Program-made: the position numbers and the translations under genes
Notes under the pieces: model-generated
Database searches by the model: none
What the model saw: only the letters and a program-made list of their open reading frames with translations
Told to the model about the DNA's origin: nothing
Origin: Syntrophales bacterium
GTDB lineage: Bacteria; Desulfobacterota; Syntrophia; Syntrophales; CG2-30-49-12
NCBI GenBank assembly: GCA_030018935.1
Contig: JASEGZ010000005.1
Span: 4,988 to 68,987 of the forward strand
Length of the DNA: 64,000 bases
Direction: 5' to 3'
Shown: in pieces, positions 6,718 through 63,643 of the stretch
Layout of the letters: each line of letters starts with the position of its first letter
Numbering within the stretch: position 1 is the stretch's first letter

Positions 6718-7536
6718 ATGGCGATTGAATTCTTTAAAATGAGTGGTAGCGGAAATGATTTCATCCTGATTGACAACAGAGACTGCTCCTTAGCCGTAGA
6801 GAACTTGGAAAGATTTGCTAGAACCATCTGCGAGAGAAAAGTCTCTGTGGGAGCAGATGGTTTGATTATCATCGAGAATTCTGACAGGACCGATTTTCGC
6901 TGGAGGTTTTTCAACGCTGATGGCAGCGAGGTGGAAATGTGCGGTAATGGAGGGCGATGTGCCGCCCGTTTCGCCAGCATCAAAGGTATCGCTAAAGAAA
7001 AGATGTCCTTTGAAACCGTGGCTGGCCTCATTGATGCCGAGGTAAAGGGCGATACGGTCAAGCTGAGATTAACCGACCCGTATCATTTACGGATAGATTA
7101 TCCGATCATCATCGAGGATCGGTCATTCGAAGTGAACAGTATCAATACTGGCGTTCCCCATGTGGCGCATTTTGTCCATGACCTTGATCACTACGACGTG
7201 TTTCATATTGGCCGGATGATTCGCTACCACCCCCAGTATCAGCCCGAGGGGACGAATGCAAATTTTGTAGAGGTAGTTGACGGGCATACCATCAAGATTA
7301 GAACATATGAAAGGGGTGTGGAGGATGAGACCCTGGCCTGCGGCACCGGTGCCGTCGCCTCGGCCCTGATATCTTCCTCAAAGGGGTTGATCGAATCACC
7401 CGTAGAAGTCAGTGTAAGGAGTGGGGAGATACTTAAAGTTTACTTTGAAAGGACAGAAGGGGGATTCGAAAATATCTATCTCGAAGGTAAAACAAAAATA
7501 GTCTATCAGGGTCTCCTCTGGGAAGAAAAGTCATAA
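6718..7536 (+). CDS. dapF: diaminopimelate epimerase
   Basis: FFKMSGSGNDFILID, the catalytic Cys motifs CGNGGRCAARF and ACGTGAVA, and a length of 272 aa. Confidence 0.95.
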   Translation: MAIEFFKMSGSGNDFILIDNRDCSLAVENLERFARTICERKVSVGADGLIIIENSDRTDFRWRFFNADGSEVEMCGNGGRCAARFASIKGIAKEKMSFETVAGLIDAEVKGDTVKLRLTDPYHLRIDYPIIIEDRSFEVNSINTGVPHVAHFVHDLDHYDVFHIGRMIRYHPQYQPEGTNANFVEVVDGHTIKIRTYERGVEDETLACGTGAVASALISSSKGLIESPVEVSVRSGEILKVYFERTEGGFENIYLEGKTKIVYQGLLWEEKS

Positions 7537-7660
7537 GTCGTAAGTCGTAAGTCGTAAGTCGTAAGTCGTAAGTCGTAAGTCGTAAGTCATAAGTCGTAAG
7601 TCATAAGTCGTAAGACATAAGACATAAGACGTAAGACGTATGACGTATGACGTATGACAT
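7530..7660. repeat. family A octamer-array hairpin (GTCGTAAG/GTCATAAG units, then ACATAAGA/ACGTAAGA/ACGTATGA units)
   Basis: Read directly. About 10 left-arm units and about 6 right-arm units fill the dapF-dapL spacer. The dapF stop (tcaTAAg) lies in the first unit. Confidence 0.9.
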
Positions 7661-7678
7661 AGAAGGAGGAACACAGAT

Positions 7679-8845
7679 TTGCAGATAGCCGACCGCTTGA
7701 AGAAAATCCCCCCCTACCTTTTTGTGGAGCTGAGAAAAAAAATAGCCCGGGCAAAGGACGATGGTGTAGACGTGATCAGTCTTGCCATCGGTGATCCCGT
7801 GGAGTCAACACCCGACCCCATTATTGATGAACTCTGCCTCAGGGCAAGAGATCCGGAAAATCACCGTTATCCCACGGATGAAGAAAAGGGGATGTTTGCC
7901 TTCCGGCAGGAGGTTGCCCGCTGGTACAGCAGTCGCTATGGTGTATCCCTGAATCCCGGGGACGAAATTTTAGGACTCATCGGCTCCAAGGAGGGTTGTC
8001 ACCACTTTATTCTGGCCTGTATCAATCCGGGGGATGTGGTCCTGATGACAGACCCCGGATACCCCGCCTACCGGGCAAGTATCCTGATGGGAGGGGGAGA
8101 GTCTTACTCCATGCCGATCCTGGTGGAAAACGGTTATCTCCCCGTTTTTGAGGACATCCAGCCTCATATCCTGAAAAAGGCGCGGGCGATGTTTCTCAAC
8201 TACCCCAATAATCCAACCGGCGCCTGCGCTACCATGGCGTTTTTTGACCGTGTGGTAAAGTTTGCCAGAGCGCATGATATTGCCGTCTGTTACGACAATC
8301 CATACAGTGAAATCGTCTTTGATGATCAGGAAAGATTAAGTTTCTTAATGGCCGAGGGGGCAAAAGAAGTGGGGGTGGAGTTAAATTCCCTGTCCAAGCC
8401 CTACAATATGACAGGCTGGCGGATCGGTATGGCGCTCGGGAACCCCGAAATCATTGCAGCAATGAGTAAGGTGAAGGAGAATACCGATTCTGGCATTTTT
8501 AATCCCATCCAGTACGCAGCCATCCATGCCCTGAGATATGAAGGGGCGGCCATAGAACACATGTTGAGTATCTATGCACGCAGGCGGGAAATGGTCCTGG
8601 CAACCCTCAGCCGTATCGAGATTACCTTTGATCCCCCCAAAGGGACCTTCTACCTCTGGGTACCGACACCGCCTGGTATGAGTTCCCTCGAATTTACCAA
8701 TCATCTGTTTGAAAAAACAGCCGTTGTCGTCGCTGCAGGTACAGCCTACGGCCAGTACGGAGAGGGTTACATCCGGATATCCCTTACCGTCCCCGATGAC
8801 AGGCTCAGGGAAGCGATGGCCCGGATTGAGAGAGAATTCGGTTAG
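7679..8845 (+). CDS. dapL: LL-diaminopimelate aminotransferase / class I aminotransferase
   Basis: TTG start after aggagga. IPPYLFVEL...ISLAIGDP...NYPNNPTG...SLSKPYNMTGWRIG (PLP lysine motif). Adjacent to dapF. Confidence 0.8.
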   Translation: MQIADRLKKIPPYLFVELRKKIARAKDDGVDVISLAIGDPVESTPDPIIDELCLRARDPENHRYPTDEEKGMFAFRQEVARWYSSRYGVSLNPGDEILGLIGSKEGCHHFILACINPGDVVLMTDPGYPAYRASILMGGGESYSMPILVENGYLPVFEDIQPHILKKARAMFLNYPNNPTGACATMAFFDRVVKFARAHDIAVCYDNPYSEIVFDDQERLSFLMAEGAKEVGVELNSLSKPYNMTGWRIGMALGNPEIIAAMSKVKENTDSGIFNPIQYAAIHALRYEGAAIEHMLSIYARRREMVLATLSRIEITFDPPKGTFYLWVPTPPGMSSLEFTNHLFEKTAVVVAAGTAYGQYGEGYIRISLTVPDDRLREAMARIEREFG

Positions 8846-8867
8846 AAAAACATCGTTATAAGAGCTT

Positions 8868-9082
8868 TGAAATTTGGGTTTATCCGCGCTCAAAAATCTT
8901 TTCCGACCATGCACGTTTAGTTTCGCTGCAAAGGCAAAACTCGCGCTTGAGCGCTCAAATATTGCCTTTGCGGACGCTTCGCTGTGACGGCAGGGTGTCC
9001 GAAAAACATTTGATTAGCTACGCTGAATCTTCGATCCAGCTACGCTGATTCTGCGAATTCGCTCTCCTGAATCCAAATTTCA
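8868..9082. repeat. family E long imperfect palindromic element
   Basis: Outer arms are tgaaatttgggtt / aatccaaatttca. Middle arms are gcgctcaaaaatcttttccgacc / ggtgtccgaaaaacatttgattagc. Inner arms are gcaaaggcaa / ttgcctttgc. It also has the direct repeat agctacgctgaatct / agctacgctgattct. Confidence 0.7.
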
Positions 9083-9131
9083 TTATTTTTCAAAGGTCTC
9101 GTTATATAAAATTCTTTGTGGAGACAAGAAA

Positions 9132-10447: not shown

Positions 10448-10587
10448 GTAAGCGTTCAGCTATCAGCTTTCAGCGAAAACAAAAAGATACAAAGAGAAGT
10501 CCACTGCTCCCAAGACAAGTTTTCATACGTAAGTTTCTGTCTTGACTTGTCTTACTGACCGCTGATCGCTGACGGCTGAACGCTTGC
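10448..10587. repeat. family B palindromic element (GTAAGCGTTCAGCTATCAGC ... GCTGATCGCTGACGGCTGAACGCTTGC) with an enlarged core
   Basis: The arms match the copies at 52174-52265 and 57239-57323. The core carries about 60 bp extra relative to those copies. Confidence 0.85.
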
Positions 10588-18335: not shown

Positions 18336-18395
18336 GGTTCGTAAAACATAAGTCGTAAGACATAAGACATAAGACAAAGGGGTATAGGGGTATAG
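18336..18395. repeat. family A-related short repeat block (cataagtcgtaagacataagacataagac, then ggggtata x2)
   Basis: Read directly. It fills the spacer between the two fumarase subunit genes. Confidence 0.75.
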
Positions 18396-23947: not shown

Positions 23948-25381
23948 CTACGATGGTTTCAGGGCTTCCATTTCTTTTTTTATCTCCTTTGCCCTCTGAG
24001 AGTCTTGGGGAAAGTATTTCAGTGCTTCCTTAAAATGAAATAGGGCGCTTTCCCTTTTATTTTTTTTCTTGAAGTAGATCCCAAAGTTGTAATGTGAATC
24101 GCCTGGGTTGTTTGTTTTGCCGTAGGCCATGGCGATATTGTAATATATATCTGCATCGTCAATATTTTTCTTCTCAAGTTTTCTGTAGAGGGTAAGAGCT
24201 GTTGCATAATCTTCCTGCGCCTCATAAGATCTTCCGAGATAGAGAAGAGTGTTTACATCGTCCTCATTAATGCTTAGAGCCTTCTTGAGAAAGTTAATAG
24301 CTTCGGCTGCCCGACCGATCTTAAAGTAAGTAATGCCTGAGTCTCTGAGGATATCCTCATCGTCAGGAGAGAGTTTTAAGGCCTGGTGAAAATTTTTTAG
24401 GGATTCGGGAATGAGACCGAGCTTTTCCTGGGTCACAGCAAGGCCATAAAGGTCATCAACGCTGTTCGGATTCTTCTCTAATTCGTTTTGAAAGTGTTTT
24501 AGTGTTGCATTAAGATTTCTGTCATTGAGGAGCAGGATTGTCTGAATCCTTTTAAACCCACCGATGATGCTTTCTGCCCCGTGGTGGGTGTAGATGGTCT
24601 GAATGAGTCCATCGAGGTATCCGATCCTCTCGTCGGTGCCCGGATGGGTCAGAAAGTAAGACGGAACAGAGTTTGAGTAGAACTCATACCTCCTCATAAT
24701 TTTTAAGAAATCTAACATGGCCTTTCCATCATATCCTGTACTAACCAGGTAGGAGATGCCGAGCCTGTCCGCTTCTTCTTCATGCTCTCGCGTGTACTTC
24801 AGACTTAAATGGGTAGCACCTGCTATGGCAAAAGTCGTTATTGCCGCAGAAGCTTCACCCCCTCCGCCAAGGAAGGCTCCGGCAAGAATTGCGGCAAGGG
24901 TACCGATACTGACCTTCTTCGACTTATCAATAATGTCAGCGATATGTCTTGCATTTACATGGGCTATTTCATGTGCCAGTACACCGGCAAGCTGGCTTTC
25001 GTTTTCTACAAGGTTGATGAGTCCTCTATTGACATAGATGTAACCTCCCGGGGTGGCAAAGGCATTGATGGCGGAACTCTTGATGATAGAGAATCGGAAG
25101 TCGAAAGGGGCTTTCTGACTGTGTGAGAGGATTCGATTACCGAGCTGGGCGATGTAACTGTTAACCTTTGGATTCTGGATAAGGGCGCCGCTCTGTTCTA
25201 ATTTTTCAAAAAATTCTTTCCCGAGCTTTTTCTCATCGTCAATAGTAAAGGCGCTATGGGCAAGTCCTGCAGTTTGAAACAGGTAAAGGAGAATGATGGC
25301 GGGAAAAAGCCCCATTTTTTTTCTTCTAAATTGGTTAAATGTATTCACTGTTTGACCTTGTTGTAAAGCTAAAGCTCTCAT
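23948..25381 (-). CDS. M48 family metallopeptidase with C-terminal TPR repeats (BepA-like)
   Basis: HEIAHVNARH (HExxH) is followed by TPR-like repeats. A signal-like MGLFPAIILLYLF suggests the true start is at 25315. Confidence 0.85.
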   Translation of the reverse strand: MRALALQQGQTVNTFNQFRRKKMGLFPAIILLYLFQTAGLAHSAFTIDDEKKLGKEFFEKLEQSGALIQNPKVNSYIAQLGNRILSHSQKAPFDFRFSIIKSSAINAFATPGGYIYVNRGLINLVENESQLAGVLAHEIAHVNARHIADIIDKSKKVSIGTLAAILAGAFLGGGGEASAAITTFAIAGATHLSLKYTREHEEEADRLGISYLVSTGYDGKAMLDFLKIMRRYEFYSNSVPSYFLTHPGTDERIGYLDGLIQTIYTHHGAESIIGGFKRIQTILLLNDRNLNATLKHFQNELEKNPNSVDDLYGLAVTQEKLGLIPESLKNFHQALKLSPDDEDILRDSGITYFKIGRAAEAINFLKKALSINEDDVNTLLYLGRSYEAQEDYATALTLYRKLEKKNIDDADIYYNIAMAYGKTNNPGDSHYNFGIYFKKKNKRESALFHFKEALKYFPQDSQRAKEIKKEMEALKPS

Positions 25382-26347
25382 CTAAGTTGAACTGATCAGT
25401 TTTTCCACCCCTTTTTCAATCTCGTCCCTCACCTCACGCATAAAGCTTATGGGTTTGTCGGAGGGGTCCGGTAAATCCCAGTCCTGGATGGGTACGCCGG
25501 GAATTGAAGGGCATTCATCTTTGCAACCCATGGTGACGATCAGGTCCGGCTTCATATAGCTTAAGACCTCATCAATGGAGGTTGTCCGGCGAAAAGCCAT
25601 GTCTATTCCCTTTTCCTTCATCGTCTCCACCATGGAAACGTTTATTTCTTTGGCTGGTTGACTGCCGGCGCCTTCCACTTCCATCCTGTCCCCCGCGTAA
25701 TACCGGGCAAACGCGCTCGCCATCTGGCTACGGCAGGCATTTTCCCGGCAGAGAAAGAGGATTTTTTTCCTCTTGAGAAATGGTTGTATGAGCCCTCCGG
25801 CCATTTCCTTTACCTCTGACAGGGCGGTCGGGTGCTTTGCGATGTCTCCCGGTTCCTCTATCTGCCTGTAAGTGAGGCTCCCGACAAAGCTGGCCCCCAC
25901 GGCATCGAAAAAATATTTAGCGGTGAGGGTAACCCCGTCGAAGAGTTTCCCGCCTCTTGTCGCACCGAGGGATAATAAAAACCCTTGCCTCCACCTCCGG
26001 CCTGGATCGGTGAGATTATATACGTACCTTCTGGACCAGAGGGCCTGAGAGCGGTCAATGAGGGCCTTCATTTGGGCCGGTGGACCGTAGAAGAAGACAG
26101 GAGTAGCCATAACGATGATATCTGCCCGCCAGAGGAGGGGATATATCTCCTCCATGTCGTCCTTCAGAAGACAAAAACCCTCTCTTTCACAGATTCTGCA
26201 TCCCTGGCAGGGTGTTATCTTCTTTTCGGCCACTGGCAGACTGTGTATGCGGGCGCCAAGCTTTTCCGTCTCCGCTAAAAATGAGGCAAGTAGATGGGCT
26301 GTATTTCCATTCTTGCGTGGACTACCATGCAGTCCAAGAACAAACAT
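25382..26347 (-). CDS. fusion protein: iron-sulfur flavoprotein (NADPH-dependent FMN reductase fold) + ArsC/low-molecular-weight phosphatase domain
   Basis: aa 1-190 carry GLHGSPRKNGNT plus C47-x2-C50-x2-C53-x5-C59. aa 194-321 carry the KKILFLCRENACRSQMA P-loop (C-x5-R-S), TMGCKDECP and DWDLPDP. Confidence 0.8.
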   Translation of the reverse strand: MFVLGLHGSPRKNGNTAHLLASFLAETEKLGARIHSLPVAEKKITPCQGCRICEREGFCLLKDDMEEIYPLLWRADIIVMATPVFFYGPPAQMKALIDRSQALWSRRYVYNLTDPGRRWRQGFLLSLGATRGGKLFDGVTLTAKYFFDAVGASFVGSLTYRQIEEPGDIAKHPTALSEVKEMAGGLIQPFLKRKKILFLCRENACRSQMASAFARYYAGDRMEVEGAGSQPAKEINVSMVETMKEKGIDMAFRRTTSIDEVLSYMKPDLIVTMGCKDECPSIPGVPIQDWDLPDPSDKPISFMREVRDEIEKGVEKLISST

Positions 26348-26415
26348 AAAAAGGGCCCTTTTCTTCTTTCCCTGGTAGAGTTTAGAACATTTTTCCTTTC
26401 AGGTCTTCAATGTAG

Positions 26416-26617
26416 ATCTAACGGTGACCTTCCTTTACCTGCACCACTCTAAGCTAAGCCCCAACGAAGGAGTAGTAGTAACGCCCCACAGGCATACCAT
26501 TTCTCTTGATGACTATTTCTCGTATCTTTCCCATGTTCCTGATCCGAGAGAAGAGATGGACATTTGCCGGGTGGTGTGGGGGCTGGGGGAGAAAATCCCC
26601 CGGCTACCCGATTAGAT
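26416..26617 (-). other. attC-like site 4 (tentative, unusually long) after the RHH-RelE cassette
   Basis: On the minus strand, ATCTAAT overlaps the relE stop (26617-26611) and GTTAGAT lies at 26422-26416. Arm pairing is only weak by hand. Confidence 0.3.
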
Positions 26618-26872
26618 TTCGCCTTTATAGACATTTCTTCGGTGACCAATTCTGAGGATAAGGATATCGTCACCTAATAATGCGTAAATTACCCGATAGT
26701 CACCTACTCGAAATTTGCGAAGCCCGGCAAATTGTCCTTTGAGGACGGGATTTGACTCAGGTTTTTTTAAAAGCTCCCGTTCAATTTGGTCGAGGATACG
26801 ACCAGCCTCTGCTTTTGAAAGCTTTTTTAAGTCGCGATGAACCGACTTTTTGTAGACGATATTATAAGCCAA
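26612..26872 (-). CDS. type II toxin, RelE/ParE family
   Basis: 86 aa. ...FRVGDYRVIYALLGDDILILRIGHRRNVY is a typical RelE/ParE C-terminus. It overlaps the upstream antitoxin by 11 nt. Confidence 0.85.
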   Translation of the reverse strand: MAYNIVYKKSVHRDLKKLSKAEAGRILDQIERELLKKPESNPVLKGQFAGLRKFRVGDYRVIYALLGDDILILRIGHRRNVYKGEI

Positions 26873-27080
26873 GAGATTTCCTTAGCTCTTTGCCAGAAAC
26901 TATAGGATCTGTTTTATCATGGAGCCGATCGAGAGCTACCTGTAGATCTGCATAATCTTCTATGTAGGACTCTAACGCTTTCTGGATTATAAAAGAGCGT
27001 GGTCTCTCTGTTTCCTTGGCTATGCTCTCCAATTGCTCGGATAGCTCCTTAGGGAGCCTAACGGATATGGCTGTACTCAT
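26862..27080 (-). CDS. ribbon-helix-helix (CopG-like) antitoxin
   Basis: ISVRLPKELSEQLESIAKETERPRSFIIQKALESY is an RHH fold signature. Confidence 0.8.
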   Translation of the reverse strand: MSTAISVRLPKELSEQLESIAKETERPRSFIIQKALESYIEDYADLQVALDRLHDKTDPIVSGKELRKSLGL

Positions 27081-27154
27081 GAAGCACCTCCTGATTCAAT
27101 TGTAATACAATGTATACGATAGTGCGTGAAATGTCAAGAGTATTTTATAGAGAA

Positions 27155-27227
27155 ATCTAACGACCAAACTGAGGGGTGCGAAAAAGCGTCAGCTTTTTTC
27201 GCACCCCTCTCCAGTGATTTGTTATGT
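27155..27227 (-). other. attC-like site 1 (73 bp)
   Basis: On the minus strand, R'' ACATAAC (27227-27221) overlaps the ORF stop and R' GTTAGAT (27161-27155) fits GTTRRRY. The internal arms caaactgaggggtgcgaaaaa / tttttcgcacccctctccagtgatttg pair with bulged bases. Confidence 0.6.
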
Positions 27228-27682
27228 CAAAATCCCCATATTTCTTCTGGGTCTTCAATATCAGGATCATCATATCTCTCCATTGTAGCAAGCCATTCTG
27301 GCATATCTTCCTTGATTGTCTGTTTCAATTCATCTAATGATTCCTTTGATATTTTCCCTTTTTCAAACATAAATTGATAAAATTTTTTTAGACTCGAAGC
27401 GTTCTCCTTTATAGCTGTTAGGCTTGCCCACATGGCTTTACGAATAAACCAATAACCCAGAAACCCTCCTATATTTCCAGCTCCATCAGCAGCTTCTATT
27501 GCCTCTTCATACAGAAGGAAATCATTGATATAGAAATCAATGTTTGAGCAGTGCTTTCTTGTTGTTTTTGCTGAAAGGTTCTTTTCCGCAAGCCAGCTTT
27601 CAAAATCTTTCAAAAGGGCTACATTCAGTTCTCGTATTCTTTTACAATCTTTTTCATATTGTTCATATGAGTCCATTATCAT
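27227..27682 (-). CDS. hypothetical cassette protein; possible stand-alone tyrosine-recombinase core-binding (SAM-like) domain
   Basis: 151 aa. The pattern LLKDFESWLAEKNLSAKTTRKHCSNIDFYINDFL ... SLTAIKENASSLKKFYQFMFEKGKI resembles integrase N-terminal domains. No catalytic domain is present. Confidence 0.5.
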   Translation of the reverse strand: MIMDSYEQYEKDCKRIRELNVALLKDFESWLAEKNLSAKTTRKHCSNIDFYINDFLLYEEAIEAADGAGNIGGFLGYWFIRKAMWASLTAIKENASSLKKFYQFMFEKGKISKESLDELKQTIKEDMPEWLATMERYDDPDIEDPEEIWGF

Positions 27683-27698
27683 TATTCCTTTTCTTTAG

Positions 27699-27837
27699 AC
27701 ATAACGGCAGGCATGAGTGGCTGGGAAAAGCTTGCGATAACCTTGGAAACTACATCAAAAGTTTGCTATTTAGACGGCCTGTGCAAAAGAAAAAAATCGC
27801 CGGCTTTTACCAGTCCATCTCAATGCCCTTGTTCGCT
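27699..27837 (-). other. attC-like site 2 (139 bp)
   Basis: On the minus strand, R'' is AGCGAAC (27837-27831) and R' is GTTATGT (27705-27699). The arms ataacggcaggcatgagtggctgggaaaagc / gcttttaccagtccatctcaatgcccttgttcg are imperfectly complementary. Confidence 0.5.
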
Positions 27838-27841
27838 ACTC

Positions 27842-28117
27842 TTAGGCAACTTCGAGTTGGAGGTGTTTGCCTACCGCTTGAGCATAATTTACTAATGTAG
27901 AGAGGCGGATGTCTTCTGCATGGTTTTCAATCCGGGAGATGGCAGATTTCTTAGTACGCAATTTCTTAGCCACTTGTTCCTGGGTGAAGCCAGCTTCAAT
28001 ACGAGCCTGTTTCAGGAGGATACCAATCTTGAATTGTTCATATCCTTTGTCAAAATCTTTTGCAAATTGGGGGCTTTGCTTCTTTCTTGTTTCAATGTAT
28101 TTATCCAGATCGTCCAT
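27842..28117 (-). CDS. higA: XRE-family HTH antitoxin (HigA-like)
   Basis: [32 protein letters not shown] is an HTH. The gene is downstream of the toxin (toxin-first order). Confidence 0.8.
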
Positions 28118-28124
28118 CTTCTAT

Positions 28125-28469: not shown

Positions 28470-28528
28470 GATTATAAGGTAAACAAATATGTGAACATTG
28501 TCAAGATATGAATTTTAAATCTTCAGAC

Positions 28529-28586
28529 AACGAACGGCAAAAATCAGCCGGCGCTGCAAGCGATTGGCTGGATTGTTTTGTTAGGT
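28529..28586 (-). other. attC-like site 3 (58 bp)
   Basis: On the minus strand, R'' ACCTAAC (28586-28580) fits RYYYAAC perfectly, while R' GTTCGTT (28535-28529) is weak. The central stem is cagcc/ggctg. It lies 20 nt after the PAP2 stop. Confidence 0.5.
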
Positions 28587-28605
28587 GCATTCTATATCTC
28601 TTGTT

Positions 28606-30088: not shown

Positions 30089-30098
30089 GGTTTCCTCT

Positions 30099-31963: not shown

Positions 31964-31964
31964 T

Positions 31965-38908: not shown

Positions 38909-39040
38909 GTAAATTTGCCTTGCACATGAGACAGTTTTTTGATAGCCTTGTTCCCGCAACAGTAATCGTGTTTTCTTGTCATGAATTGTATTTCTTGAGG
39001 GGGAAACGGGGAAAATAAATATTTTAAGGAGGAGTAAGTT

Positions 39041-45974: not shown

Positions 45975-46894
45975 GTGTAGAACATGACCATAATTTCCTG
46001 ATGGCGTATCTTAAGGAAAAAAAGGGGATCATTGATGAGGCCCTTGACCGTTACCTCCCCGAAGAGGAAAACTACCCGCCGGTGATCTTTAAAGCTGTCC
46101 GGTACAGCCTTTTTGCAGGAGGGAAGAGGATCAGGCCGATCTTATGTCTGGCCTCGGCAGAGGCAGTCGGAGGGGGAAGCGGGGAGAGCCTGCATTCAAT
46201 CCTGCCGGTGGCCTGCGCCTTGGAGCTTATCCATACCTACTCCCTGATTCATGATGACCTTCCCGCCATGGATAACGACGATTACAGGAGAGGGAAACCG
46301 ACAAATCATAAGGTGTTTGGTGAAGGCATTGCCATTCTGGCCGGTGATGCCCTCCTGACGGAAGCCTTCCACCTGATGTCAAGGCGGGACGTTATGGGAG
46401 ATGTCCCGCCGGAATTGCTTCTCACCGTAATTCATGATATTGCAGAGGCAGCGGGATACTTCGGAATGGTTGGGGGGCAGGTGGTTGATCTCCAATCGGA
46501 GGGGAAGGATGCCGATAACGAAACGCTTCATTACATCCACTCCCATAAGACGGGGGCGATGATCTCTGCTTCTGTCAGGGCGGGTGCATTATTGGCCGGC
46601 GCCGGAAAAAACGATCTCCATGCCCTCTCCGCATACGGCAGGCATGTGGGCCTCGTCTTCCAGATAGCAGACGATATCCTCAATATTGAAGGGGACAGGA
46701 AGTTGCTGGGAAAGAACACGGGGAGCGATGCCTCGCGTGGTAAGATCACCTTTCCTGCCCTGATGGGCGTGGAAACGTCCCGCAGGAAGGCCCGGGAGCT
46801 TGTGGAACAGGCCCTGACCGATATTGCAGACTTTGATCACAGGGCTCGTCCTTTGCGGGAGATAGCAAGGTATGTCATAAGTCGTAAGTCATAA
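45971..46894 (+). CDS. ispA: polyprenyl (farnesyl/geranylgeranyl) diphosphate synthase
   Basis: Aspartate-rich motifs IHDDLPAMDNDD and ADDILN. GTG start overlaps the xseB stop. The last codons and the stop lie inside the repeat A3 left arm. Confidence 0.92.
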   Translation: MSVEHDHNFLMAYLKEKKGIIDEALDRYLPEEENYPPVIFKAVRYSLFAGGKRIRPILCLASAEAVGGGSGESLHSILPVACALELIHTYSLIHDDLPAMDNDDYRRGKPTNHKVFGEGIAILAGDALLTEAFHLMSRRDVMGDVPPELLLTVIHDIAEAAGYFGMVGGQVVDLQSEGKDADNETLHYIHSHKTGAMISASVRAGALLAGAGKNDLHALSAYGRHVGLVFQIADDILNIEGDRKLLGKNTGSDASRGKITFPALMGVETSRRKARELVEQALTDIADFDHRARPLREIARYVISRKS

Positions 46895-47106
46895 GTCGTA
46901 AGTCAAACATAGATGAAAATTGGGAAATCCAAGGATATTAAAAGGATATTAAGGTGTGGCAGATGGCAGGGAAACCGGCAAGAGAGAGTTTAAAGGATAA
47001 ATTTGCCAAAGATTTGGGCTTGAAGGATCAAATTCGCAGGGCGGCTGTGTTCAATATTTCGGGGGGTTTTGTATGACATATGACATACGACATACGACAT
47101 ACGACA
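46873..47106. repeat. family A element with a unique core of about 165 bp (left arm 46873-46905, right arm 47071-47106)
   Basis: The left arm tgtcataagtcgtaagtcataagtcgtaagtc and right arm gtatgacatatgacatacgacatacgacatacgacat are about 7/8 complementary per unit by hand pairing. Confidence 0.85.
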
Positions 47107-49812: not shown

Positions 49813-51555
49813 ATGGTTGTTAAACTGGCGAGGGCGGCAGGATTCTGCATGGGTGTCAAGAGGGCTGTTGACATGGTCCTCGATATTGCCCGGCGCAAGG
49901 GTAAAGAGAATATCTACACGTACGGGCCACTGATCCATAATCCCCAGACGATAGAACTTCTCAGGATGCGGGGGATCATTCCTGTCTCTCACCTGGATGA
50001 AATCCGTGAGGGAGGGGCGACTATTATCATCAGGGCGCACGGTATATCGCCCCAGGAGAGAGAGAGGATCAGGGAAAGAGGGATCAGGATCATTGACGCT
50101 ACCTGTCCTAAGGTTGCACATGTCCAGGCTATTATTAAAAAACATGCCCTTCTCAATTATACCGTCCTGATCGTTGGTGATGGTGAGCACCCGGAGGTGA
50201 ATGGCCTCCTCGGATATACCTATGGTAAGGGCATTGTCATTGGCAGCAGGGATGAAGTGGATTGTCTTCCCGAGCTGGATAGGGTTTGCGTAGTTGCACA
50301 GACGACACAAAGTATCGTCGAATATAACGAAATCGTAAAGAGGATCAAGGAAAAATTCCCCGATAATGTCGTTTTTGATACCATCTGTAATTCTACGGAG
50401 CAGAGACAGTCCGAGGTTAAAGAACTGGCTGGACAGATGGATGCCATGGTTATCGTGGGAGGGAAGAACAGCGCAAACACGAAGCGATTGGCCAGGTTAT
50501 CTGAACTTACGGGAACGCCTACATTTCACATTGAAACTGTGGAAGAGCTTAAAAAAATGACAATGAACAGTTACGAAAGAATCGGTGTTTCTGCAGGGGC
50601 ATCGACACCCAACTGGATCATTGACCGGGTGGTGGATAGCATTACAAGCTATCAAGGCCAAAAGAGGAAAAAGATCGGGGGGCTTTTTAATCTCTGGGTA
50701 TTTACCATCAGGTGCGATATATATTCCGCCATCGGCGCCGGATGCCTGTCCTTTACAGGCATGCTTTTACAGAAGCTCAACGTTAGTATCTTGAATATCC
50801 TGACCACATCACTTTATGTTTACGCCATGCATACCCTTAATCGTTTCATCAACAGGAAAACCAGCAGCAGCATCATCGGCTCGTTCAGGGAAGAACTATA
50901 TCGGAAGCATGAAAAGCTCTATCTGTTCATGGCGTTGCTCGCCCTCTTCCTTGCCATGGTATCTTCCTTCTTCACAGGTCTGGCCCCTTTTTTTCTGCTT
51001 TTACTGATTTCTGTCCTGGGGGTACTCTACAATACCAGGTTGTTACCGGAGAACTGGCGTTTAAAAAGACTGAGAGACCTGCCGGGATCAAAAAATGTCT
51101 CCATGGCCATGGCCTGGGGTACTGTGGCAGCGGTGCTACCACAGATGGAGATTGATCTGGCGATTACTCCCGGTATGACTGTAGCTTTTCTGTTTATCTT
51201 TTTCCTGGTTTTTATCCGCTCGGCAATGTCCGATACACTCGACATCCAGAGCGATCGTCTGATTGGCAGAGAAACGATCCCCGTCCTGATTGGAGAGGAA
51301 TATACCCGGATTCTTCTGCAGGGGATACTGGTTTTCCTGGTCATTTTACTCGTTATCGCCTATCCCGCGGGGTGGGCTCCCTCGTTGAGTCTTGCCCTTT
51401 TATCCTGCCCATTTTATGTATGGATTTGTTTTAAGCTCTGTGATAGAAGGTCGCAACTGTCCGGTGTAGTTCTGGAAGGTCTACTTGAGACCTGCTACAT
51501 CGTAGCCGGTATGAGTGCATTTTTGTGGTTCATTTTCACCAGGCATGTTCCGTAA
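49813..51555 (+). CDS. ispH: IspH (HMBPP reductase) fused to a C-terminal UbiA-like polytopic membrane domain
   Basis: aa 1-285 carry LARAAGFCMGVKRAV, ATCPKV, CNST and the VSAGASTPNW IspH motifs. aa about 290-580 are multi-TM with SDTLDIQSDRLIGRETIPVLIG, resembling the second Asp-rich UbiA motif. Confidence 0.85.
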   Translation: MVVKLARAAGFCMGVKRAVDMVLDIARRKGKENIYTYGPLIHNPQTIELLRMRGIIPVSHLDEIREGGATIIIRAHGISPQERERIRERGIRIIDATCPKVAHVQAIIKKHALLNYTVLIVGDGEHPEVNGLLGYTYGKGIVIGSRDEVDCLPELDRVCVVAQTTQSIVEYNEIVKRIKEKFPDNVVFDTICNSTEQRQSEVKELAGQMDAMVIVGGKNSANTKRLARLSELTGTPTFHIETVEELKKMTMNSYERIGVSAGASTPNWIIDRVVDSITSYQGQKRKKIGGLFNLWVFTIRCDIYSAIGAGCLSFTGMLLQKLNVSILNILTTSLYVYAMHTLNRFINRKTSSSIIGSFREELYRKHEKLYLFMALLALFLAMVSSFFTGLAPFFLLLLISVLGVLYNTRLLPENWRLKRLRDLPGSKNVSMAMAWGTVAAVLPQMEIDLAITPGMTVAFLFIFFLVFIRSAMSDTLDIQSDRLIGRETIPVLIGEEYTRILLQGILVFLVILLVIAYPAGWAPSLSLALLSCPFYVWICFKLCDRRSQLSGVVLEGLLETCYIVAGMSAFLWFIFTRHVP

Positions 51556-52173: not shown

Positions 52174-52265
52174 GTAAGCATTCAGCCGTCAACGATCAGC
52201 GATCAGTAACCCCTGGTATCTTTTTGTTTTTGCTGAAAACTGAAGGCTGACAGCCGAACGCTTAC
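52174..52265. repeat. family B palindromic element (inverted orientation relative to 57239-57323)
   Basis: The reverse complement aligns almost end to end with the 57239-57323 copy. Confidence 0.85.
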
Positions 52266-54485: not shown

Positions 54486-55283
54486 ATGGATGGGTTGAGG
54501 AATATTGTTGGTGTAAAGTTCGATAAGGGGGGGAAGGTACGCTTCTTTAATGCCTCTGGTCTTTTGCTGAAAAAGAAAGATGAGGTAATTGTCAATACCG
54601 ATAATGGACCGGCAATCGGCAGGGTTGTGACAGATGTGAGGTCTGTGCCCATCTATAAAGCACCGATCAACTTTCAGGATGTTGTCCGTAAAGTTACAGG
54701 AAAAGATTTGAAGGTTAAAGAAGATAATCGGGAGTTAGAACAAGTTGCCCGCCAATTCTGCCTGGAAAGGATCAAGGCGAGAAACCTTCCCATGAAACTG
54801 ATAGATGTGACGTATTTCTTTGATAGAAGCAAGGTGATGTTCTACTTTACTGCGGAAAACCGTGTTGATTTCAGGGAACTCGTCAGGGATCTGGTGCAAA
54901 AGTTCAAGACCAGAATTGAGTTAAGGCAGATTGGCGCCAGACATGAGGCCTGTATTATCAAAGGGATAGGAGTCTGCGGCAGAGAGGTCTGCTGCGCCGG
55001 TTCACACTATAATCCTGATCGGGTTTCAGTCAAGATGGCAAAAGAACAGGGTGTGTCTCTGAATATAGAGAAGATTTCGGGGCTTTGCGGGAGACTCATG
55101 TGCTGTATGTCCTTTGAGTACGATGTCTATCAGGATATGAAAAAGAATATGCCGAAATGTGGAAAAATGCTCCAGACTAGCGGGGGACGTGGCAAGGTCG
55201 TCAGGCAAAACGTCCTCCGGGATGAGATTATTGTAGAGCTGGAAAATGGTAAAGAGATTGCCGTCAATGTGAAAGATCTGTAA
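54486..55283 (+). CDS. ricT: PSP1-domain protein (RicT/YaaT-like)
   Basis: VGVKFDKGGKVRFF, a C-terminal Cys-rich CGREVCC...GLCGRLMCC, and synteny after tmk-holB. Confidence 0.8.
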   Translation: MDGLRNIVGVKFDKGGKVRFFNASGLLLKKKDEVIVNTDNGPAIGRVVTDVRSVPIYKAPINFQDVVRKVTGKDLKVKEDNRELEQVARQFCLERIKARNLPMKLIDVTYFFDRSKVMFYFTAENRVDFRELVRDLVQKFKTRIELRQIGARHEACIIKGIGVCGREVCCAGSHYNPDRVSVKMAKEQGVSLNIEKISGLCGRLMCCMSFEYDVYQDMKKNMPKCGKMLQTSGGRGKVVRQNVLRDEIIVELENGKEIAVNVKDL

Positions 55284-55474
55284 CTACTCAGGTAGGCACA
55301 AAGGTTTGAGAGCACCAAAGGCACAAAGTCAAGAGATCTGAAGAGAATGAGTTGATTAAGTTCCTATAAGATGTTTACAAGGCGGTATTTGGACAGGTTG
55401 TATCATGCGTTCCGATCGTATTCCTTTGAACTTTGTGCCTATGTGCCTTTGCCCCTTTGTGCCTGAATAGTTAC
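55280..55474. repeat. family C hairpin with a unique core of about 105 bp
   Basis: gtaactactcaggtaggcacaaagg...ggcacaaag / ctttgtgcctatgtgcctttgcccctttgtgcctgaatagttac. Confidence 0.85.
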
Positions 55475-55505
55475 AAAGATCTTTAGCCCTTACAAAAGAG
55501 TTTTT

Positions 55506-57102: not shown

Positions 57103-57200
57103 TGGCGGAAGTGCATGGGAATCGAACCCACCTGGGACGGTTTTAGCGCCCCACACTGGATTTGAAGTCCAGGAGGCCCACCAGTGACCTTGGCACTTCC
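57103..57200 (-). tRNA. selC: tRNA-Sec (anticodon UCA), CCA encoded
   Basis: The reverse complement is GGAAGTGCCAAGGTCACTGGTGGGCCTCCTGGACTTCAAATCCAGTGTGGGGCGCTAAAACCGTCCCAGGTGGGTTCGATTCCCATGCACTTCCGCCA. It has an 8-bp acceptor stem, a long variable arm, and an anticodon arm identical to the E. coli selC CUGGACUUCAAAUCCAG. Confidence 0.92.
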
Positions 57201-57238
57201 ACGCAGGATGTAAAGAACTTTTTGCAAATGGTTATAGG

Positions 57239-57323
57239 GTAAGCGTTCAGCTATCAGCCTTCAGTTTTCAGCGAAAACAAAAAAATACGAGGGGTTACTG
57301 ATCGCTGAGGGCTGAACGCTTGC
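57239..57323. repeat. family B palindromic element
   Basis: gtaagcgttcagctatcagccttcagttttcagcgaaaacaaaaaaatacgaggggttactgatcgctgagggctgaacgcttgc. Confidence 0.85.
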
Positions 57324-57324
57324 A

Positions 57325-58566
57325 TTATAGGTATCCAGGCTGAGCTGTCTGTTCGAGAGAAGTATCAATCAACTGCACTGTCACCTCATCACCCTTTCTG
57401 GCCGATGCTATATCCTCAGGCAGGATGATGAGTCCATTCGCCCTGACCATAGACTTCAGGATGCCAGAACCCTGTTCACCTGTGGTGCTGACGGTATATC
57501 TTCCCCCTTCGTATTTGACCCTGGCCCTGATAAAGTGTTTCACCCCTTTGCTTTTTGTGATATCTTCGTGAAGACAGGCCTTGATCGTCTTGCGAAACAG
57601 GTTTTTATGGCCCATCATCTTGAGTATAGAGGGCCTGACAAACTGTTCAAAGGAGATCATTGACGATACCGGGTTGCCGGGTAATCCAAAAACCGGAATC
57701 CCCTCCATGGCGCCAAAGGCAAGGGGTCTCCCCGGTCTCATTGCCACACGCCAGAATTCCATGGCGTTTCCCACTTCCTTCATGATATCTTTCACGAGAT
57801 CGTAATCTCCCACCGAGACCCCGCCGGATGAAATGATGATATCTGCCCGGAGGGCAGCCCGGAACTTGGCGACCAAGTCTTCCCTCGTATCTTTTGCTAT
57901 CCCGATATGCAGTGGGATGCCACCGCAGTCCATCACCTGGGCGGTAAGGGAATAGCTGTTGCTGCTGATGATTTTCCATGGCGATGGTATTTCGTCAATG
58001 TCAACCAGCTCGTCACCGGTGGACAGGATGGCGACAAGGGGCCTCTGATAAACATATATAAAGGAACGACCCAGAGCGGCCAGCATGCCTACCTCTGCCG
58101 GTCTTACGATCTCTCCCCGTGAGATGACCAGCTCTCCCTCTTTGACATCCTCTCCCGCATACCTGATATCCTGTCCCTGTTCGGTCTGTACATAGACCTT
58201 TACCCTCTGTCCATCCCTTTCCGTATCTTCCATTCTGATGACGGCATCCGCTCCCTCCGGTACAGGAGCGCCGGTCATGATCCTGGATGCAGTACCAGGT
58301 TCCACACTTTTCCGGGGAATATAACCGGCGGGGATATCTTCGATGACATCAAGGGTAACCGGGTTTTTCCTTGTCGCCCCCAGGGTGTCCTTCCAGCGGA
58401 GGGCATAGCCGTCCATAGCCGAGTTGTCTTTCGGCGGGATGTTACGTATGGCGTATATATCCTCACCGATAACCCTTCCCAGGGCATCCAGGAGACTGAC
58501 CTTCTCCAGACCGAGAGGGGCAATGTTTTTAAGAATACGGTTCAGGGCGTCTTCAACAGTGATCAT
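57325..58566 (-). CDS. moeA: molybdopterin molybdenumtransferase
   Basis: SAMDGYA, PGNPVSS and overall MoeA architecture; 413 aa. Confidence 0.93.
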   Translation of the reverse strand: MITVEDALNRILKNIAPLGLEKVSLLDALGRVIGEDIYAIRNIPPKDNSAMDGYALRWKDTLGATRKNPVTLDVIEDIPAGYIPRKSVEPGTASRIMTGAPVPEGADAVIRMEDTERDGQRVKVYVQTEQGQDIRYAGEDVKEGELVISRGEIVRPAEVGMLAALGRSFIYVYQRPLVAILSTGDELVDIDEIPSPWKIISSNSYSLTAQVMDCGGIPLHIGIAKDTREDLVAKFRAALRADIIISSGGVSVGDYDLVKDIMKEVGNAMEFWRVAMRPGRPLAFGAMEGIPVFGLPGNPVSSMISFEQFVRPSILKMMGHKNLFRKTIKACLHEDITKSKGVKHFIRARVKYEGGRYTVSTTGEQGSGILKSMVRANGLIILPEDIASARKGDEVTVQLIDTSLEQTAQPGYL

Positions 58567-62343: not shown

Positions 62344-62346
62344 TAA

Positions 62347-62422
62347 AGTCGTAAGTCGTATGTCGTAAGTCGTATGTCATAATATAAAAGACATAGGACG
62401 TAAGACGTAAGACGTAGGACTT
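62347..62422. repeat. family A octamer-array hairpin
   Basis: agtcgtaagtcgtatgtcgtaagtcgtatgtcat - aatataaaag - acataggacgtaagacgtaagacgtaggac. Confidence 0.85.
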
Positions 62423-62446
62423 ATTGATGAAGGGGGGAGTGGGAAA

Positions 62447-63418
62447 ATGACAGGAAAAACATTAAAGACCTGGGTGGTTCTTTCTTTTGCGGTTTTTCTA
62501 ACTACTTCGGTATATGCCGAAATTGCAGACAGAATCGTGGCCATTGTAAATGATGAGGTTATCACCATGTTCGATTTGAACAGCGCCCTGGAGTCATACC
62601 GGAAAAAGATAGAAGAATCTTACACGAGTCGGGATAAGGACAGTGTTGTTGCCGAGGCTAAAGTCGCCATGTTGAATAAGCTGATTGATGGTCACCTGAT
62701 CGAACAGGAGGCGAAAAAAGCGGGGATTGTCGTCAAAGATGAGGAGGTTATGGAAACAATCAAAGACATCCTCGGCAAAAGAAATATCAAGATAGGGGAT
62801 TTTACAGAAATCCTTGTCAGGGAAGGGTCCAGTTTTGATGCCTACAGGAAAGAGATCAGAGATCAGATGACCAGGATGAGACTCATCAGGCGGGAGCTGA
62901 GGCCCAAGGTTAGGGTTAGTGAAGATGAAATAGGTGAGTATTACCGTAAGCACAGGGAGGATTATGAGGGCAGAGAAGCGGTCCGGGTTAAGCAGATATT
63001 TATTCCAATTCCGAAGGACTGTGATCAGGAGATGAGGGCAAGGCTTAGGGCCAATGCCGAAATGATCCGCAAACAGATAAATACGGCGGAATCCTTTGAC
63101 CTTGTCGCGGCAACCTATGCGACAGGACCTGCCGCGGCCATAGGTGGCGATACCGGTTTTGTTGAGAGGGGGATGATGATCCCCGCAGTAGAAGAGGTGG
63201 CCTTCAGCCTGGGAAAAGATGGGATCAGTGATATAATTGAGTCCCCCATGGGTTTTCATATCATCAGGGTTGTTGATAAGAGAGGAGGGGGGATTAAGCC
63301 CCTCGAATCCGTCCGTGAAGAGATCAAAGAAAAGATAGAGGATGAAAAAATGGATAAGAAGTACGAAGAATGGATCGGAGAATTGAGAGCGAAATCTCAC
63401 ATTGAGATAAAACTTTAG
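62447..63418 (+). CDS. SurA-like periplasmic chaperone / parvulin-type peptidyl-prolyl isomerase
   Basis: Signal peptide, SurA N-domain-like IVAIVNDEVIT, and the parvulin motif GFHIIRV. Confidence 0.85.
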   Translation: MTGKTLKTWVVLSFAVFLTTSVYAEIADRIVAIVNDEVITMFDLNSALESYRKKIEESYTSRDKDSVVAEAKVAMLNKLIDGHLIEQEAKKAGIVVKDEEVMETIKDILGKRNIKIGDFTEILVREGSSFDAYRKEIRDQMTRMRLIRRELRPKVRVSEDEIGEYYRKHREDYEGREAVRVKQIFIPIPKDCDQEMRARLRANAEMIRKQINTAESFDLVAATYATGPAAAIGGDTGFVERGMMIPAVEEVAFSLGKDGISDIIESPMGFHIIRVVDKRGGGIKPLESVREEIKEKIEDEKMDKKYEEWIGELRAKSHIEIKL

Positions 63419-63643
63419 GAACTACTTAGGAGCCAGGAGCCAGAATTCAGGAGCCAGTATGAAAAGAAAGCCCGCTAAGGATTTTCACACCGATGGAGTA
63501 TAAGTGTTAAACAATATCAAATGACCAAAACACAAAATTCGAGACAACGCAGGGAGGATAAAGAAGAAGTCAGTAAGTTGATAGAGGCATACACTCTTTT
63601 ATTCTGGATTCTGGCTCCTGACTTCTGACTCCTGAGTAATTAC
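63418..63643. repeat. family D hairpin (AGGAGCC/AGAATTC units) with a unique core of about 150 bp
   Basis: ggaactacttaggagccaggagccagaattcaggagccag ... ctggattctggctcctgacttctgactcctgagtaattac. It ends 2 nt before the uvrA ATG. Confidence 0.85.

Follow-up and report, generated by a model that had tools for sequence, protein, structure and literature searches.

The sequence studied here is a stretch of 64,000 nucleotides from a Syntrophales bacterium (GenBank assembly GCA_030018935.1, contig JASEGZ010000005.1; "the window" hereafter) in which 13 loci carry repeat elements that we group into families A to E. It seems likely, with a probability of about 0.7, that most of them are small nonautonomous transposable elements of the miniature inverted-repeat kind (MITEs) seated in the short spacers of housekeeping operons and mobilized in trans by an IS66-type transposase, with the tandem 7-nt units (heptads) of their arms serving as recognition sites. 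Families B and C are MITEs, and families D and E probably belong here as well. General features of MITEs are present in that the elements are small (85 to 296 nt), noncoding, bounded by terminal inverted repeats, and dispersed in several copies whose orthologous sites are filled in some genomes and empty in others. An initial annotation, which had listed 12 of the 13 loci (the addition is a short locus at 41200-41221), had likened the elements to repetitive extragenic palindromic (REP) sequences and bacterial interspersed mosaic elements (BIMEs) or to MITEs; the MITE part of this likeness holds for B, C, probably D, and E, based on target-site duplications, terminal inverted repeats, and the comparison of filled and empty sites.

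Target-site duplications, empty sites and IS66-like ends

Element sites were compared with those of relatives at 94% (L057), 89% (L178), 82% (L054), 80% (L181), and 78% identity (L056) as well as of L048 to L053, six samples of a single species with identical DapL. The nearest relatives of the window by DapL are at about 90% identity and include Syntrophaceae bacterium CG2_30_49_12, which L048 resembles (90% DapL identity). As the initial annotation had proposed, presence and absence were compared between these relatives, and empty sites emerged for three elements. C2 sits between the two copies of a perfect 8-bp duplication, AAAGATCT (55272-55279 and 55475-55482), that adjoins its terminal inverted repeats exactly. 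Excision of C2 together with one copy of this duplication predicts the sequence ...GTGAAAGATCT-TTAG-CCCTTACAAAAG, and L181 reads ...GAAGATAT-TTAG-TCTTTACAAAAG at this place, i.e., an empty site; in the window, the GTAA end of C2 now provides the stop codon of ricT (TAG to TAA) and leaves the C-terminus of RicT unchanged. The duplication around B3 matches at 7/8 positions (GTTATAGG / ATTATAGG) and includes the moeA stop codon, and the empty site in L056 reads TGG-CTAAGGG-TATCCAGG. For D, the empty site in L054 is TTTAG-GG-ATGAATTA, with the prsA stop and the uvrA start 2 nt apart. Perfect 8/8 duplications also flank E (TCGTTATA, 8853-8860 and 9099-9106) and C-type copies in relatives (L163, AGTATTCC; L048, GAATTCGG(T), 8/8 plus 1), while the flanking repeat of B2 reaches 6/8 (GATTTTTT / TAATTTTT). 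Such 8-bp duplications show transposition to be the way in which the elements arrived.

Several spacers hold different occupants in different genomes. The ricT-metG spacer is empty in L181 (19 nt), holds C2 in the window, carries a 47-nt (GCAAGTT/GTAAGTC) hairpin in L178, and contains three D-like heptads in L180. The dapL-ychF spacer houses E in the window and a C-type MITE in L048, the ychF-SDR spacer measures 482 nt in the window (where it holds B1) versus 22 nt in L048, and the D site of L056 is occupied by an 88-nt element with termini like those of D and arms of TGNAGGC units. At the C1 site, L178 has only a solo right end, CAAGCCTGAGTAGTTAC, within the 3' end of tlyA, and tlyA and ispH overlap there. 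The C-type MITE of L048 (11171-11343) lies just before the dapL stop codon with its target GAATTCGG(T) duplicated, so that the last 17 DapL residues are element-encoded. An explanation of the elements as assembly artefacts, i.e., collapsed or chimeric repeats, is next to impossible even though the window comes from a metagenome-assembled genome and short reads might give a wrong exact unit count for the near-perfect A1 array of 91 nt, as the same elements recur at the same sites and junctions when other samples and sources (ENA, JGI, Logan) are assembled independently (L048 to L053, L057, and L178/L179), flanking genes are intact and in frame, and duplications and empty sites are internally consistent.

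The ends of family B point to a specific group of insertion sequences. All six B arms in the window end in GTAAGCG or GCAAGCG, and IS66 elements have 20- to 30-bp terminal inverted repeats that start with GTAAGCG and make 8-bp direct repeats (PMC11946415). The B terminus GTAAGCGTTCAGCT matches the inverted repeat of ISPsk01, GTAAGCGTCCGGCG (PMC12888890), at 11/14 positions. Families C and D share a 13-nt terminus, GTAACTA CTCAGGN, a common motif that unites them in one superfamily. More generally, terminal repeats of the IS66 family start with GTAA, as do GTAAGCG (B) and, on this GTAA-only reading, GTAACTA (C/D). The C/D superfamily is assigned to IS66 more loosely than B, with the GTAA start and the second-heptad theme as the only shared sequence features. 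Because no transposase was found in the window or beside any fetched copy, the GTAAGCG terminus and the 8-bp duplication are what ties the elements to IS66.

Family B extends far beyond the Syntrophales. A degenerate 26-nt arm pattern, built to match all six B arms of the window, was scanned over metagenome contigs and matched at least 120 of them, with GC contents from 31% to 68% among the matches listed. Among these listed matches, 58 complete and distinct B-type elements could be delimited, which measure 85 to 296 nt (median 147) and have GTAAGCG-type ends by construction of the pattern. Their flanking duplications are perfect (8/8) in 23 cases and near-perfect (7/8) in another 7, i.e., at least 7/8 for 30/58 copies, compared to 0.16% of controls with displaced boundaries that reach 7/8. 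The hosts that flanking proteins identified belong to four cyanobacterial genera (Crocosphaera, Trichodesmium, Symplocastrum/Microcoleus, and Trichormus (Nostoc) azollae) and to Candidatus Binatota. With B arms counted in, period-7 runs reach a density of 33 per 100 kb in the B-type contigs, including other arrays of, e.g., TAACTGA, CAGGAGT, and AATTATC types, so that B-type MITEs and the general heptamer-repeat phenomenon co-occur in the sample studied. One B-type copy (L092, duplication CTTAGAAT) has a core that is itself a (GTAAGNN)4 hairpin, which indicates that heptad hairpins like those of family A can ride inside a B-type MITE. The arm pattern had no match in viral contigs, and a plasmid BLAST search returned one uninformative match of 35 nt.

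A possible cargo was seen in one B-type element of about 461 nt (L087, reverse strand), which contains an intact 128-aa open reading frame (ORF) of the PF05635 family (23S rRNA intervening-sequence/four-helix-bundle proteins; E 5e-26) and takes its last codons from the right arm. In a second copy, a 27-residue remnant of this ORF is left (L121 4074-4154).

Taken together, these observations lead to the following view. Each MITE has a terminal GTAA-type heptad (GTAAGCG in B, GTAACTA in C/D) followed by an NTCAGSN heptad that is reiterated three to five times per arm in B and D, and the arms flank a variable, dispensable core. Insertion duplicates 8 bp of the target, and a DDE transposase of the IS66 family, encoded elsewhere in the genome, probably moves the elements in trans. 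The heptads probably offer multiple recognition sites for this transposase or an accessory protein, with units gained and lost by replication slippage to give the microsatellite look. Copy-number differences support such slippage (3 to 5 units of (TCAGTTA)n, 5 versus 4 left units of A4, and 11 versus 1 of A1).

Several results weigh against this interpretation. A cognate transposase, for which the initial annotation had proposed a search, did not turn up: by ORF listing, no transposase of any family lies next to an element, whether within the window or across roughly 0.69 Mb of fetched contigs that bear elements, and a motif search found no IS66 catalytic motif in the window or in any fetched locus. 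ORFs beside unpaired ends revealed no autonomous partner, and no full-length element with the same ends and an IS66 TnpC, with or without TnpA/TnpB, is present within the 64 kb of the host genome plus the fetched loci. Among the window ORFs that were scanned, none encodes a REP-associated tyrosine transposase (RAYT). No flanking duplication is recognizable at D, B1 (decayed, 4/8), or the L056 copy, and family A has neither a terminal GTAA-type inverted repeat nor a valid duplication. B2 is kept at the orthologous site of the 89% relative L178 with 2 to 3 substitutions and has thus been fixed since the two lineages split, so at least some copies are no longer active. Finally, the probable binding of a protein to the heptads is read from their conservation pattern only.

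Composition and folding of the repeat elements

In a period scan of the window, 11 runs had period 7 and a single run had period 6, while periods 4, 5, and 8 to 12 were not represented; Tandem Repeats Finder agrees on period 7. For comparison, 798 kb of unrelated bacterial contigs contain 8 period-7 runs, which puts the excess in the 64-kb window well above chance; this control set stems from an Mfd scan of the genome collection and holds distant homologues only, mostly with best-segment identity below 50%. The unit of family A, initially taken as 8 nt, is in fact 7 nt (GTCGTAA, equivalently GTAAGTC) by both methods, and only family C has units of about 8 nt. Consecutive heptads of the form (NTCAGNN)x3 occur 7 times in the window and not at all in the controls. 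The terminal motifs are likewise in excess, with 5 matches of CCTGAGTAGTTAC (C/D) against 0.83 expected and 8 matches of GCTGAACGCTTAC against 0.72 expected. Altogether, the elements comprise about 1.6 kb. Intergenic DNA of the window totals 6.7 kb, so they make up roughly one-fourth of it.

Repeat-armed elements exist at essentially all places where the initial annotation had located them (Table 1). Tandem-repeat arms, claimed for every family, are absent from E, which has no period-7 arms. The proposed five or more families reduce to fewer architectural types, namely GTAA-ended MITEs (B and C/D), the separate MITE-like E, and pure heptad arrays (A). Similarly, the elements do not universally fill their whole spacer, given that B1 takes up only 140 of 482 nt.

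Table 1. Repeat elements of the window in order of position.
Locus	Positions	Strand	Description
A1	7530-7660		about 18 heptads, 11 x RTAAGTC then 7 x RTAWGAC; from dapF stop (inside first unit) to dapL ribosome-binding site
E	8853-9106		238-bp MITE-like element (8861-9098); terminal inverted repeats AGAGCTTTGAAA / GACCTTTGAAA, short; no heptad arms
B1	10448-10587	+	left arm GTAAGCG TTCAGCT ATCAGCT TTCAGCG, right arm the inverted equivalent; core 84 nt
A2	18341-18376	+	five heptads GTAAAAC ATAAGTC GTAAGAC ATAAGAC ATAAGAC between the two fumarate hydratase subunit genes; direct array, no hairpin
B4	38856-38908	+	solo left arm TTAAGCATTCGGC TATCAGC GGTCAGC TTTCAGC without a partner; located in a divergent promoter region
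Extra locus	41200-41221	+	three NTCAGG-type heptads GGTCAGG GGTCAGG GGTCAAT over 3' end and stop codon of ORF 40666-41226
A3	46870-47106		true inverted pair: (RTAWGTC)5 at 46870-46904, core 165 nt, (GACATAY)5 at 47072-47106
C1	49722-49811		C-type, no left terminal motif; right end CCTGAGTAGTTAC stops 1 nt before ispH ATG
B2	52174-52265	-	92-nt B-type MITE, orientation opposite to B1 and B3
C2	55272-55482		195-nt C-type MITE (55280-55474); termini GTAACTACTCAGG / CCTGAATAGTTAC; GCACAAAG octamer arms
B3	57231-57331	+	85-nt B-type MITE (57239-57323) between tRNA-Sec and moeA
A4	62344-62422		11 heptads (five xTAxGTC, ATAATAT, five xxAxGAC) from mfd stop to prsA ribosome-binding site; DNA folding z -6.6
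D	63418-63643		226-nt element with C-type termini GGAACTACTTAGG / CCTGAGTAATTAC, NYCAGRA arms and core of 147 nt, from prsA stop to uvrA ATG

In heptad phase, family B (3.5 copies in the window) reads [GYAAGCR][TTCRGCY][NTCAGCN]x2-3 followed by AAAACAAAAAGATA, the variable core, and the inverted equivalent of the arm. The C/D superfamily has three copies in the window and at least five in relatives; C arms consist of GCACAAAG octamers with a period of about 8 (CTTTGTGC), and D reiterates the second heptad as NYCAGRA. This anatomy shows that B and C/D share a common plan, i.e., a GTAA-type terminal heptad and then an NTCAG-type heptad that is sometimes amplified. The unit of the extra locus recurs in L048, where a (GGGGTCA)4 / (TGAACCY)3 hairpin lies between lolD and lolC.

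All elements had been described as hairpins, and folding of RNA and single-stranded DNA bears this out for most loci. Compared to shuffled sequences, RNA fold z-scores are -8.0 for A4, -7.6 for B1, -7.4 for B3, -6.3 for C1, -5.5 for A1, -5.2 for C2, -4.2 for A3, -3.2 for E (with multiple hairpins), -3.0 for D, and -2.9 for B2, and single-stranded DNA of A1, A4, B2, B3, and C1 folds with z-scores of -3.5 to -6.6. The exceptions are A2 (z +0.9) and the half copy B4 (z -0.3), which form no hairpin. Short ORFs in the cores of A3 (46954-47076, +) and D (63461-63505, +) begin alike, which may be chance: MAGKPARE... starts at an internal ATG of the 40-aa ORF of A3, which has no Pfam match, and MKRKPAKD... 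opens the 14-aa ORF of D.

Roles of the heptads and alternative explanations

The two arms of B-type elements are complementary in a distinctive manner. Among the 58 complete copies from the listed matches, positions 2 to 6 of the heptad (TCAGC) are 95% complementary from arm to arm, while positions 1 and 7 are so at 29%, which is about chance. Selection for stem stability or homogenization of the arms by gene conversion would make all seven positions match, in contrast to the 5/7 pattern that is observed. This conservation of TCAGC suggests a 5-nt recognition motif that is reiterated at 7-nt spacing on both arms.

Recognition of this kind does not need to involve a transposase. Heptad arrays might instead be sites on double-stranded DNA to which a chromosomal protein, be it a nucleoid-associated protein or a global regulator, binds cooperatively, as has been proposed for paired sites in Geobacter metallireducens. 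A parallel is the omega repressor of plasmid pSM19035, which binds 7-bp heptads in series, whether direct or inverted, and both direct (A1, A2, and A4) and inverted arrays occur in the window. The 5-nt core with two free positions per heptad on both arms would fit such a protein, as would the recurrence of NTCAG heptads across unrelated families and hosts and their absence, as (NTCAGNN)x3, from the controls. The right-arm unit of D, CTYCTGA, equals the class 3 consensus MTYCTGA of Geobacter, and (TAACTGA)n arrays of relatives lie just upstream of the ompH ribosome-binding site, similar to arrays in Beggiatoaceae (PMC4679880). We nevertheless regard this alternative as doubtful: a candidate binding protein is lacking, the many heptad sequences of one genome would demand either a whole set of proteins or a very loose specificity, no shared function unites the flanking genes, and arrays are gained and lost between close relatives. 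It is furthermore compatible with, and not opposed to, binding of the heptads by a transposase.

Another possibility is that the host selected the elements as RNA hairpins of polycistronic mRNA that, like REP/BIME sequences, stabilize, attenuate, or terminate transcripts or couple translation, with repeats as a mere means of making stems. This idea draws on the location of 10/13 loci between co-directional genes, on folds that surpass shuffled sequences with z-scores down to -8, and on the mfd-prsA hairpin that is kept in three lineages with different repeat sequence. Element ends coincide with stop codons and, at ispH and uvrA, approach start codons to 1 to 3 nt; copies of family F in L056 end in a conserved, terminator-like T-run (CATTTTTTAAGTA); and hairpins of STRRs (repetitive sequences made of short tandem repeats) have been proposed to stabilize transcripts or to couple translation (PMC2670836). 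Yet the B copies occur in both orientations relative to transcription, two of seven arm positions are complementary at chance level only, empty sites suffice in close relatives (2 nt for prsA-uvrA, 19 nt for ricT-metG), and the 8-bp duplications show arrival by transposition. A scan for intrinsic terminators and promoters (46 to 64 kb, loops of 3 to 8 nt only) found nothing that coincides with the elements, and Rfam at gathering score has no match at any element across the whole window, its sole match being tRNA-Sec (57107-57200). An origin as selected hairpins is thus unlikely; the host may have co-opted the elements later.

An inserted element is expected to ride in the operon transcript as a long imperfect hairpin, its GTAA/TGA-rich ends would supply stop codons, and its stem would draw the upstream stop and the downstream start near each other; this supply of stops and the proximity of stop and start are probably why insertions are tolerated. 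Stop codons mark or enclose the point where an element begins, and the GTAA, TAA, and TGA content of the elements puts a stop into every frame over a length of three heptads. At C1 and D, the terminus reaches to 1 to 3 nt from the starts of ispH and uvrA without a Shine-Dalgarno sequence, and their stem may keep the translational coupling that exists in relatives with empty sites.

Least compelling among the biological alternatives is that the arrays are plain microsatellites that grew in place by slippage and became inverted via template switching at quasi-palindromes, without any mobility. Among the long simple repeats of bacteria, heptamers occur most often, and a proposal traces them to slippage (Mrazek 2007, summarized in PMC4679880 and PMC4692102); copy number varies between strains, A1, A2, and A4 are phase-coherent single arrays, and the first A unit coincides with native coding sequence (AAG TCA TAA of DapF and RKS* of IspA, each in both species). 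This scenario cannot explain why there are 8-bp duplications, why 13-nt termini are shared and cores conserved, and why one 26-nt arm pattern spans several phyla, and the same A unit is unlikely to arise independently at four unlinked loci. Overall, we consider it improbable, and it is live for family A only.

Two more specific ideas about the MITEs can be dismissed. Heptads as relics of repeated 7-bp target duplications are ruled out by a duplication of 8 bp, and B-type elements differ from the cyanobacterial MITE Nezha, whose direct repeat is 10 bp (PMC6042816).

Family A and known heptamer repeats

A1, A2, and A4 are single phase-coherent direct arrays of (RTAAGTC)n and then (RTAAGAC)n whose halves are 6/7 identical as direct repeats and only 5/7 complementary, so that the stem consists of GUC:GAC triplets and two A-U pairs per heptad with regular mismatches. 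At all six independent A- or F-type loci, the GTAAG strand is the sense strand and directly follows a stop codon. The first A1 unit overlies the codons AAG TCA TAA with which dapF natively ends in either species; in L048, this spacer has kept its ends and the right array and has one left unit (versus 11 in the window) plus a GC hairpin core. The mfd-prsA site has 4 left units of A4 in L057 versus 5 in the window, and in L056 it reads (GGRGTAA)7 TTTTTA (CRCCTCA)4, i.e., the architecture is kept and the unit differs. A flanking TTGATGAA repeat at A4 was rejected as an 8-bp duplication since both copies are native in the element-free relative L180. Next to A2, directly after its heptads, an 8-nt direct repeat (AGGGGTAT x2.2, 18378-18395) overlaps the ribosome-binding region of the gene for the fumarate hydratase beta subunit.

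The arms of A3 are translated. Its left arm encodes the last 8 codons of ispA (C-terminus YVISRKS*, 46871-46894, versus YLVERKS* in L178), and its right arm provides the dxs start codon and the first ~11 codons (MTYDIRHTTYD, 47073-47106, versus MEGKGKS in L178), so a change by one heptad would shift the frame. The ispA-dxs spacer of L178 is unrelated and 133 nt long. A 7/8 match of the A3 flanks (TAGCAAGG / TAGAAAGG) was not accepted as a duplication, given that L178 shows the spacer replaced and not simply interrupted.

Pure arrays of relatives comprise (GTAAGGR)n, (GCAAGTT)n, (TCAGTTA)n, and (GGGGTCA)n and share GTAAG or TCAG themes with variable copy number. Of these, (TCAGTTA)n, which is (TAACTGA)n on the gene strand, lies in the bamA-ompH spacer of L048 to L053 (~383-434), just upstream of the ompH ribosome-binding site, with 3 to 5 copies and point variants among the six samples. 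Family A has the features of STRRs, i.e., tandem heptanucleotides in intergenic positions with strain-variable copy number. Since STRRs were defined in heterocystous cyanobacteria with other units, this is a likeness in kind and not sequence homology. Family A, which is closest to cyanobacterial STRR hairpins and to the paired arrays of Geobacter, and the arrays of relatives are best filed as STRR-like pure heptad arrays; the flanks and orthologous sites compared gave no proof of mobility for family A. The GTAAG theme that family A shares with the terminal heptad of the MITEs is a resemblance and not a demonstrated derivation.

The elements described here also resemble REP/BIME sequences as abundant intergenic palindromic units within operons. 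To our knowledge, REPs make no target duplications. Unlike the elements of the window with 85 to 240 bp, tandem-repeat arms, and 8-bp duplications, they are single palindromes of 20 to 40 bp with a GTAG or CGTC tag and a link to RAYTs (PMC3733652). The elements share with IS66 and MITEs derived from insertion sequences the GTAAGCG start, the 8-bp duplication, and a small, noncoding, hairpin-forming, and intergenic nature with filled and empty orthologous sites (other bacterial MITEs are described in PMC3184786). They differ from IS66 in arms of about 35 to 50 nt with 3 to 5 NTCAGCN heptads in place of a unique 20- to 30-bp inverted repeat.

The initial annotation found no named match for microsatellite-like arms, yet hairpins of heptamer repeats are known from STRRs (PMC2670836), paired inverted arrays of 7- to 9-nt repeats from Geobacter metallireducens (PMC2700814), and inverted heptamer pairs from Xanthomonas and Nostoc (PMC4692102). 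Like the elements of the window, STRRs are hairpin-capable 7-bp tandem repeats in spacers of co-transcribed genes, e.g., hupS-hupL, with suggested roles in transcript stability or translational coupling (PMC2670836), and the hupS-asr0689 region of Nostoc contains (TTGTCAG)n and (CTGACNA)n, that is, NTCAG-type heptads on both strands (PMC2408588). However, the host studied here is not a cyanobacterium, the units differ (GTAAGTC, NTCAGCN, and NYCAGRA), and some arrays demonstrably form the arms of elements with terminal inverted repeats and 8-bp duplications, whereas STRRs are not tied to transposition in the accessible portions of these papers.

For Geobacter metallireducens, Aklujkar et al. 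(2009) describe, as "putative global regulator binding sites", three classes (classes 1 to 3) of paired arrays with 3 to 5 tandem repeats of 7 to 9 nt on opposite strands at variable distance (PMC2700814). As in the window, these sites are intergenic, including within the operon proB-proA, and several classes exist in one deltaproteobacterial genome; in addition, class 1 sites are accompanied by the insertion sequences ISGme8/9 at a constant distance (PMC2700814). In contrast to our interpretation, they were read as sites of IHF/HU or of a regulator, and a GTAA motif, a target duplication, or an empty site is not reported in the accessible text (PMC2700814). The TAACTGA repeats described by MacGregor (2015) are intergenic heptamers just upstream of starts as well, with a patchy spread across phyla that suggests horizontal transfer (PMC4679880). 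The exact repeat of these sets in Beggiatoaceae, Cyanobacteria, and Bacteroidetes is present in the nearest relatives L048 to L053 and absent from the window itself. Different from the elements analyzed here, 169 of these sets are direct versus one indirect, and they were not reported as hairpin arms or mobile elements (PMC4679880). With kindred repeats in STRRs, Geobacter, TAACTGA sets, and Xanthomonas/Nostoc, the phenomenon is not categorically new. In the open-access literature text that was searched, we found neither the B-type terminal sequences nor a description of heptad arrays that build the arms of a MITE which occurs across phyla, has IS66-type ends, and makes 8-bp duplications.

Heptamers are the most overrepresented long simple repeat of many bacteria, for which a paper of 2015 noted that no detailed literature was then available (PMC4692102), and their patchy spread across phyla is a puzzle (PMC4679880). 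The locus studied here ties at least one array type, (NTCAGCN)n, to the arms of a bona fide transposable element whose ends are of IS66 type and whose range extends from cyanobacteria to Syntrophales and Candidatus Binatota. On a wider and rather speculative reading, heptads would serve as working units of an IS66-related transposition system with a wide distribution, and the intergenic heptamer excess of STRRs, TAACTGA repeats in Beggiatoaceae, Geobacter, and Syntrophales would largely consist of the end-recognition heptads GTAAGNN and NTCAGNN of IS66-related MITEs and products of their decay and expansion. The arrays would, on this equally tentative account, have spread horizontally and been remodeled by slippage and would not reflect a bias of DNA polymerase. 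Should the tie between arrays and such elements extend to more cases, it would account for the spread of the arrays and would point to a transposase or accessory protein as the missing heptad-binding factor. In a stronger version, a dedicated heptad-binding protein may coat the arrays, for which the PF05635 four-helix-bundle protein of L087 is an anecdotal candidate. Irrespective of this, the elements rewrite gene ends, as seen at the ricT stop, the Dxs N-terminus, and the 17-residue DapL extension of L048, and they likely break or confuse short-read assemblies and gene calling in such uncultured lineages.

Neighboring genes and minor observations

The genes of the window are ordinary housekeeping genes, mostly on the plus strand, and comprise dapF, dapL, ychF, both fumarate hydratase subunits, xseA/B, ispA, dxs, tlyA, ispH, tmk, holB, ricT, metG, moeA, mfd, a SurA/PrsA-like isomerase (prsA), and uvrA. 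The tRNA-Sec gene (57103-57200, minus strand, anticodon TCA) is located between metG and moeA and adjoins B3; it is kept in L056, which has no B3. At 49813-51555 (+), a single 580-aa ORF encodes an IspH (LytB) domain fused to a UbiA-type prenyltransferase domain, a fusion also called in L178. Upstream of nifU, L181 carries an IS110-family transposase (DEDD_Tnp_IS110 / Transposase_20; 2878-3658), and the same place in the window holds a lipoprotein gene and B2.

An accessory island on the minus strand (26612-28469) lies within the minus-strand gene block and contains a ParE-family toxin (26612-26872), an N-terminal fragment of a phage integrase (27227-27682), an HTH_3 antitoxin-like gene (27842-28117), and a Gp49/HigB-like toxin (28125-28469). 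Both GC and AT skew flip their sign over this block (~24000-38500), which includes acetolactate synthase as well as the toxin-antitoxin island. The B4 half element, located in the divergent spacer 38535-39040, bounds the block.

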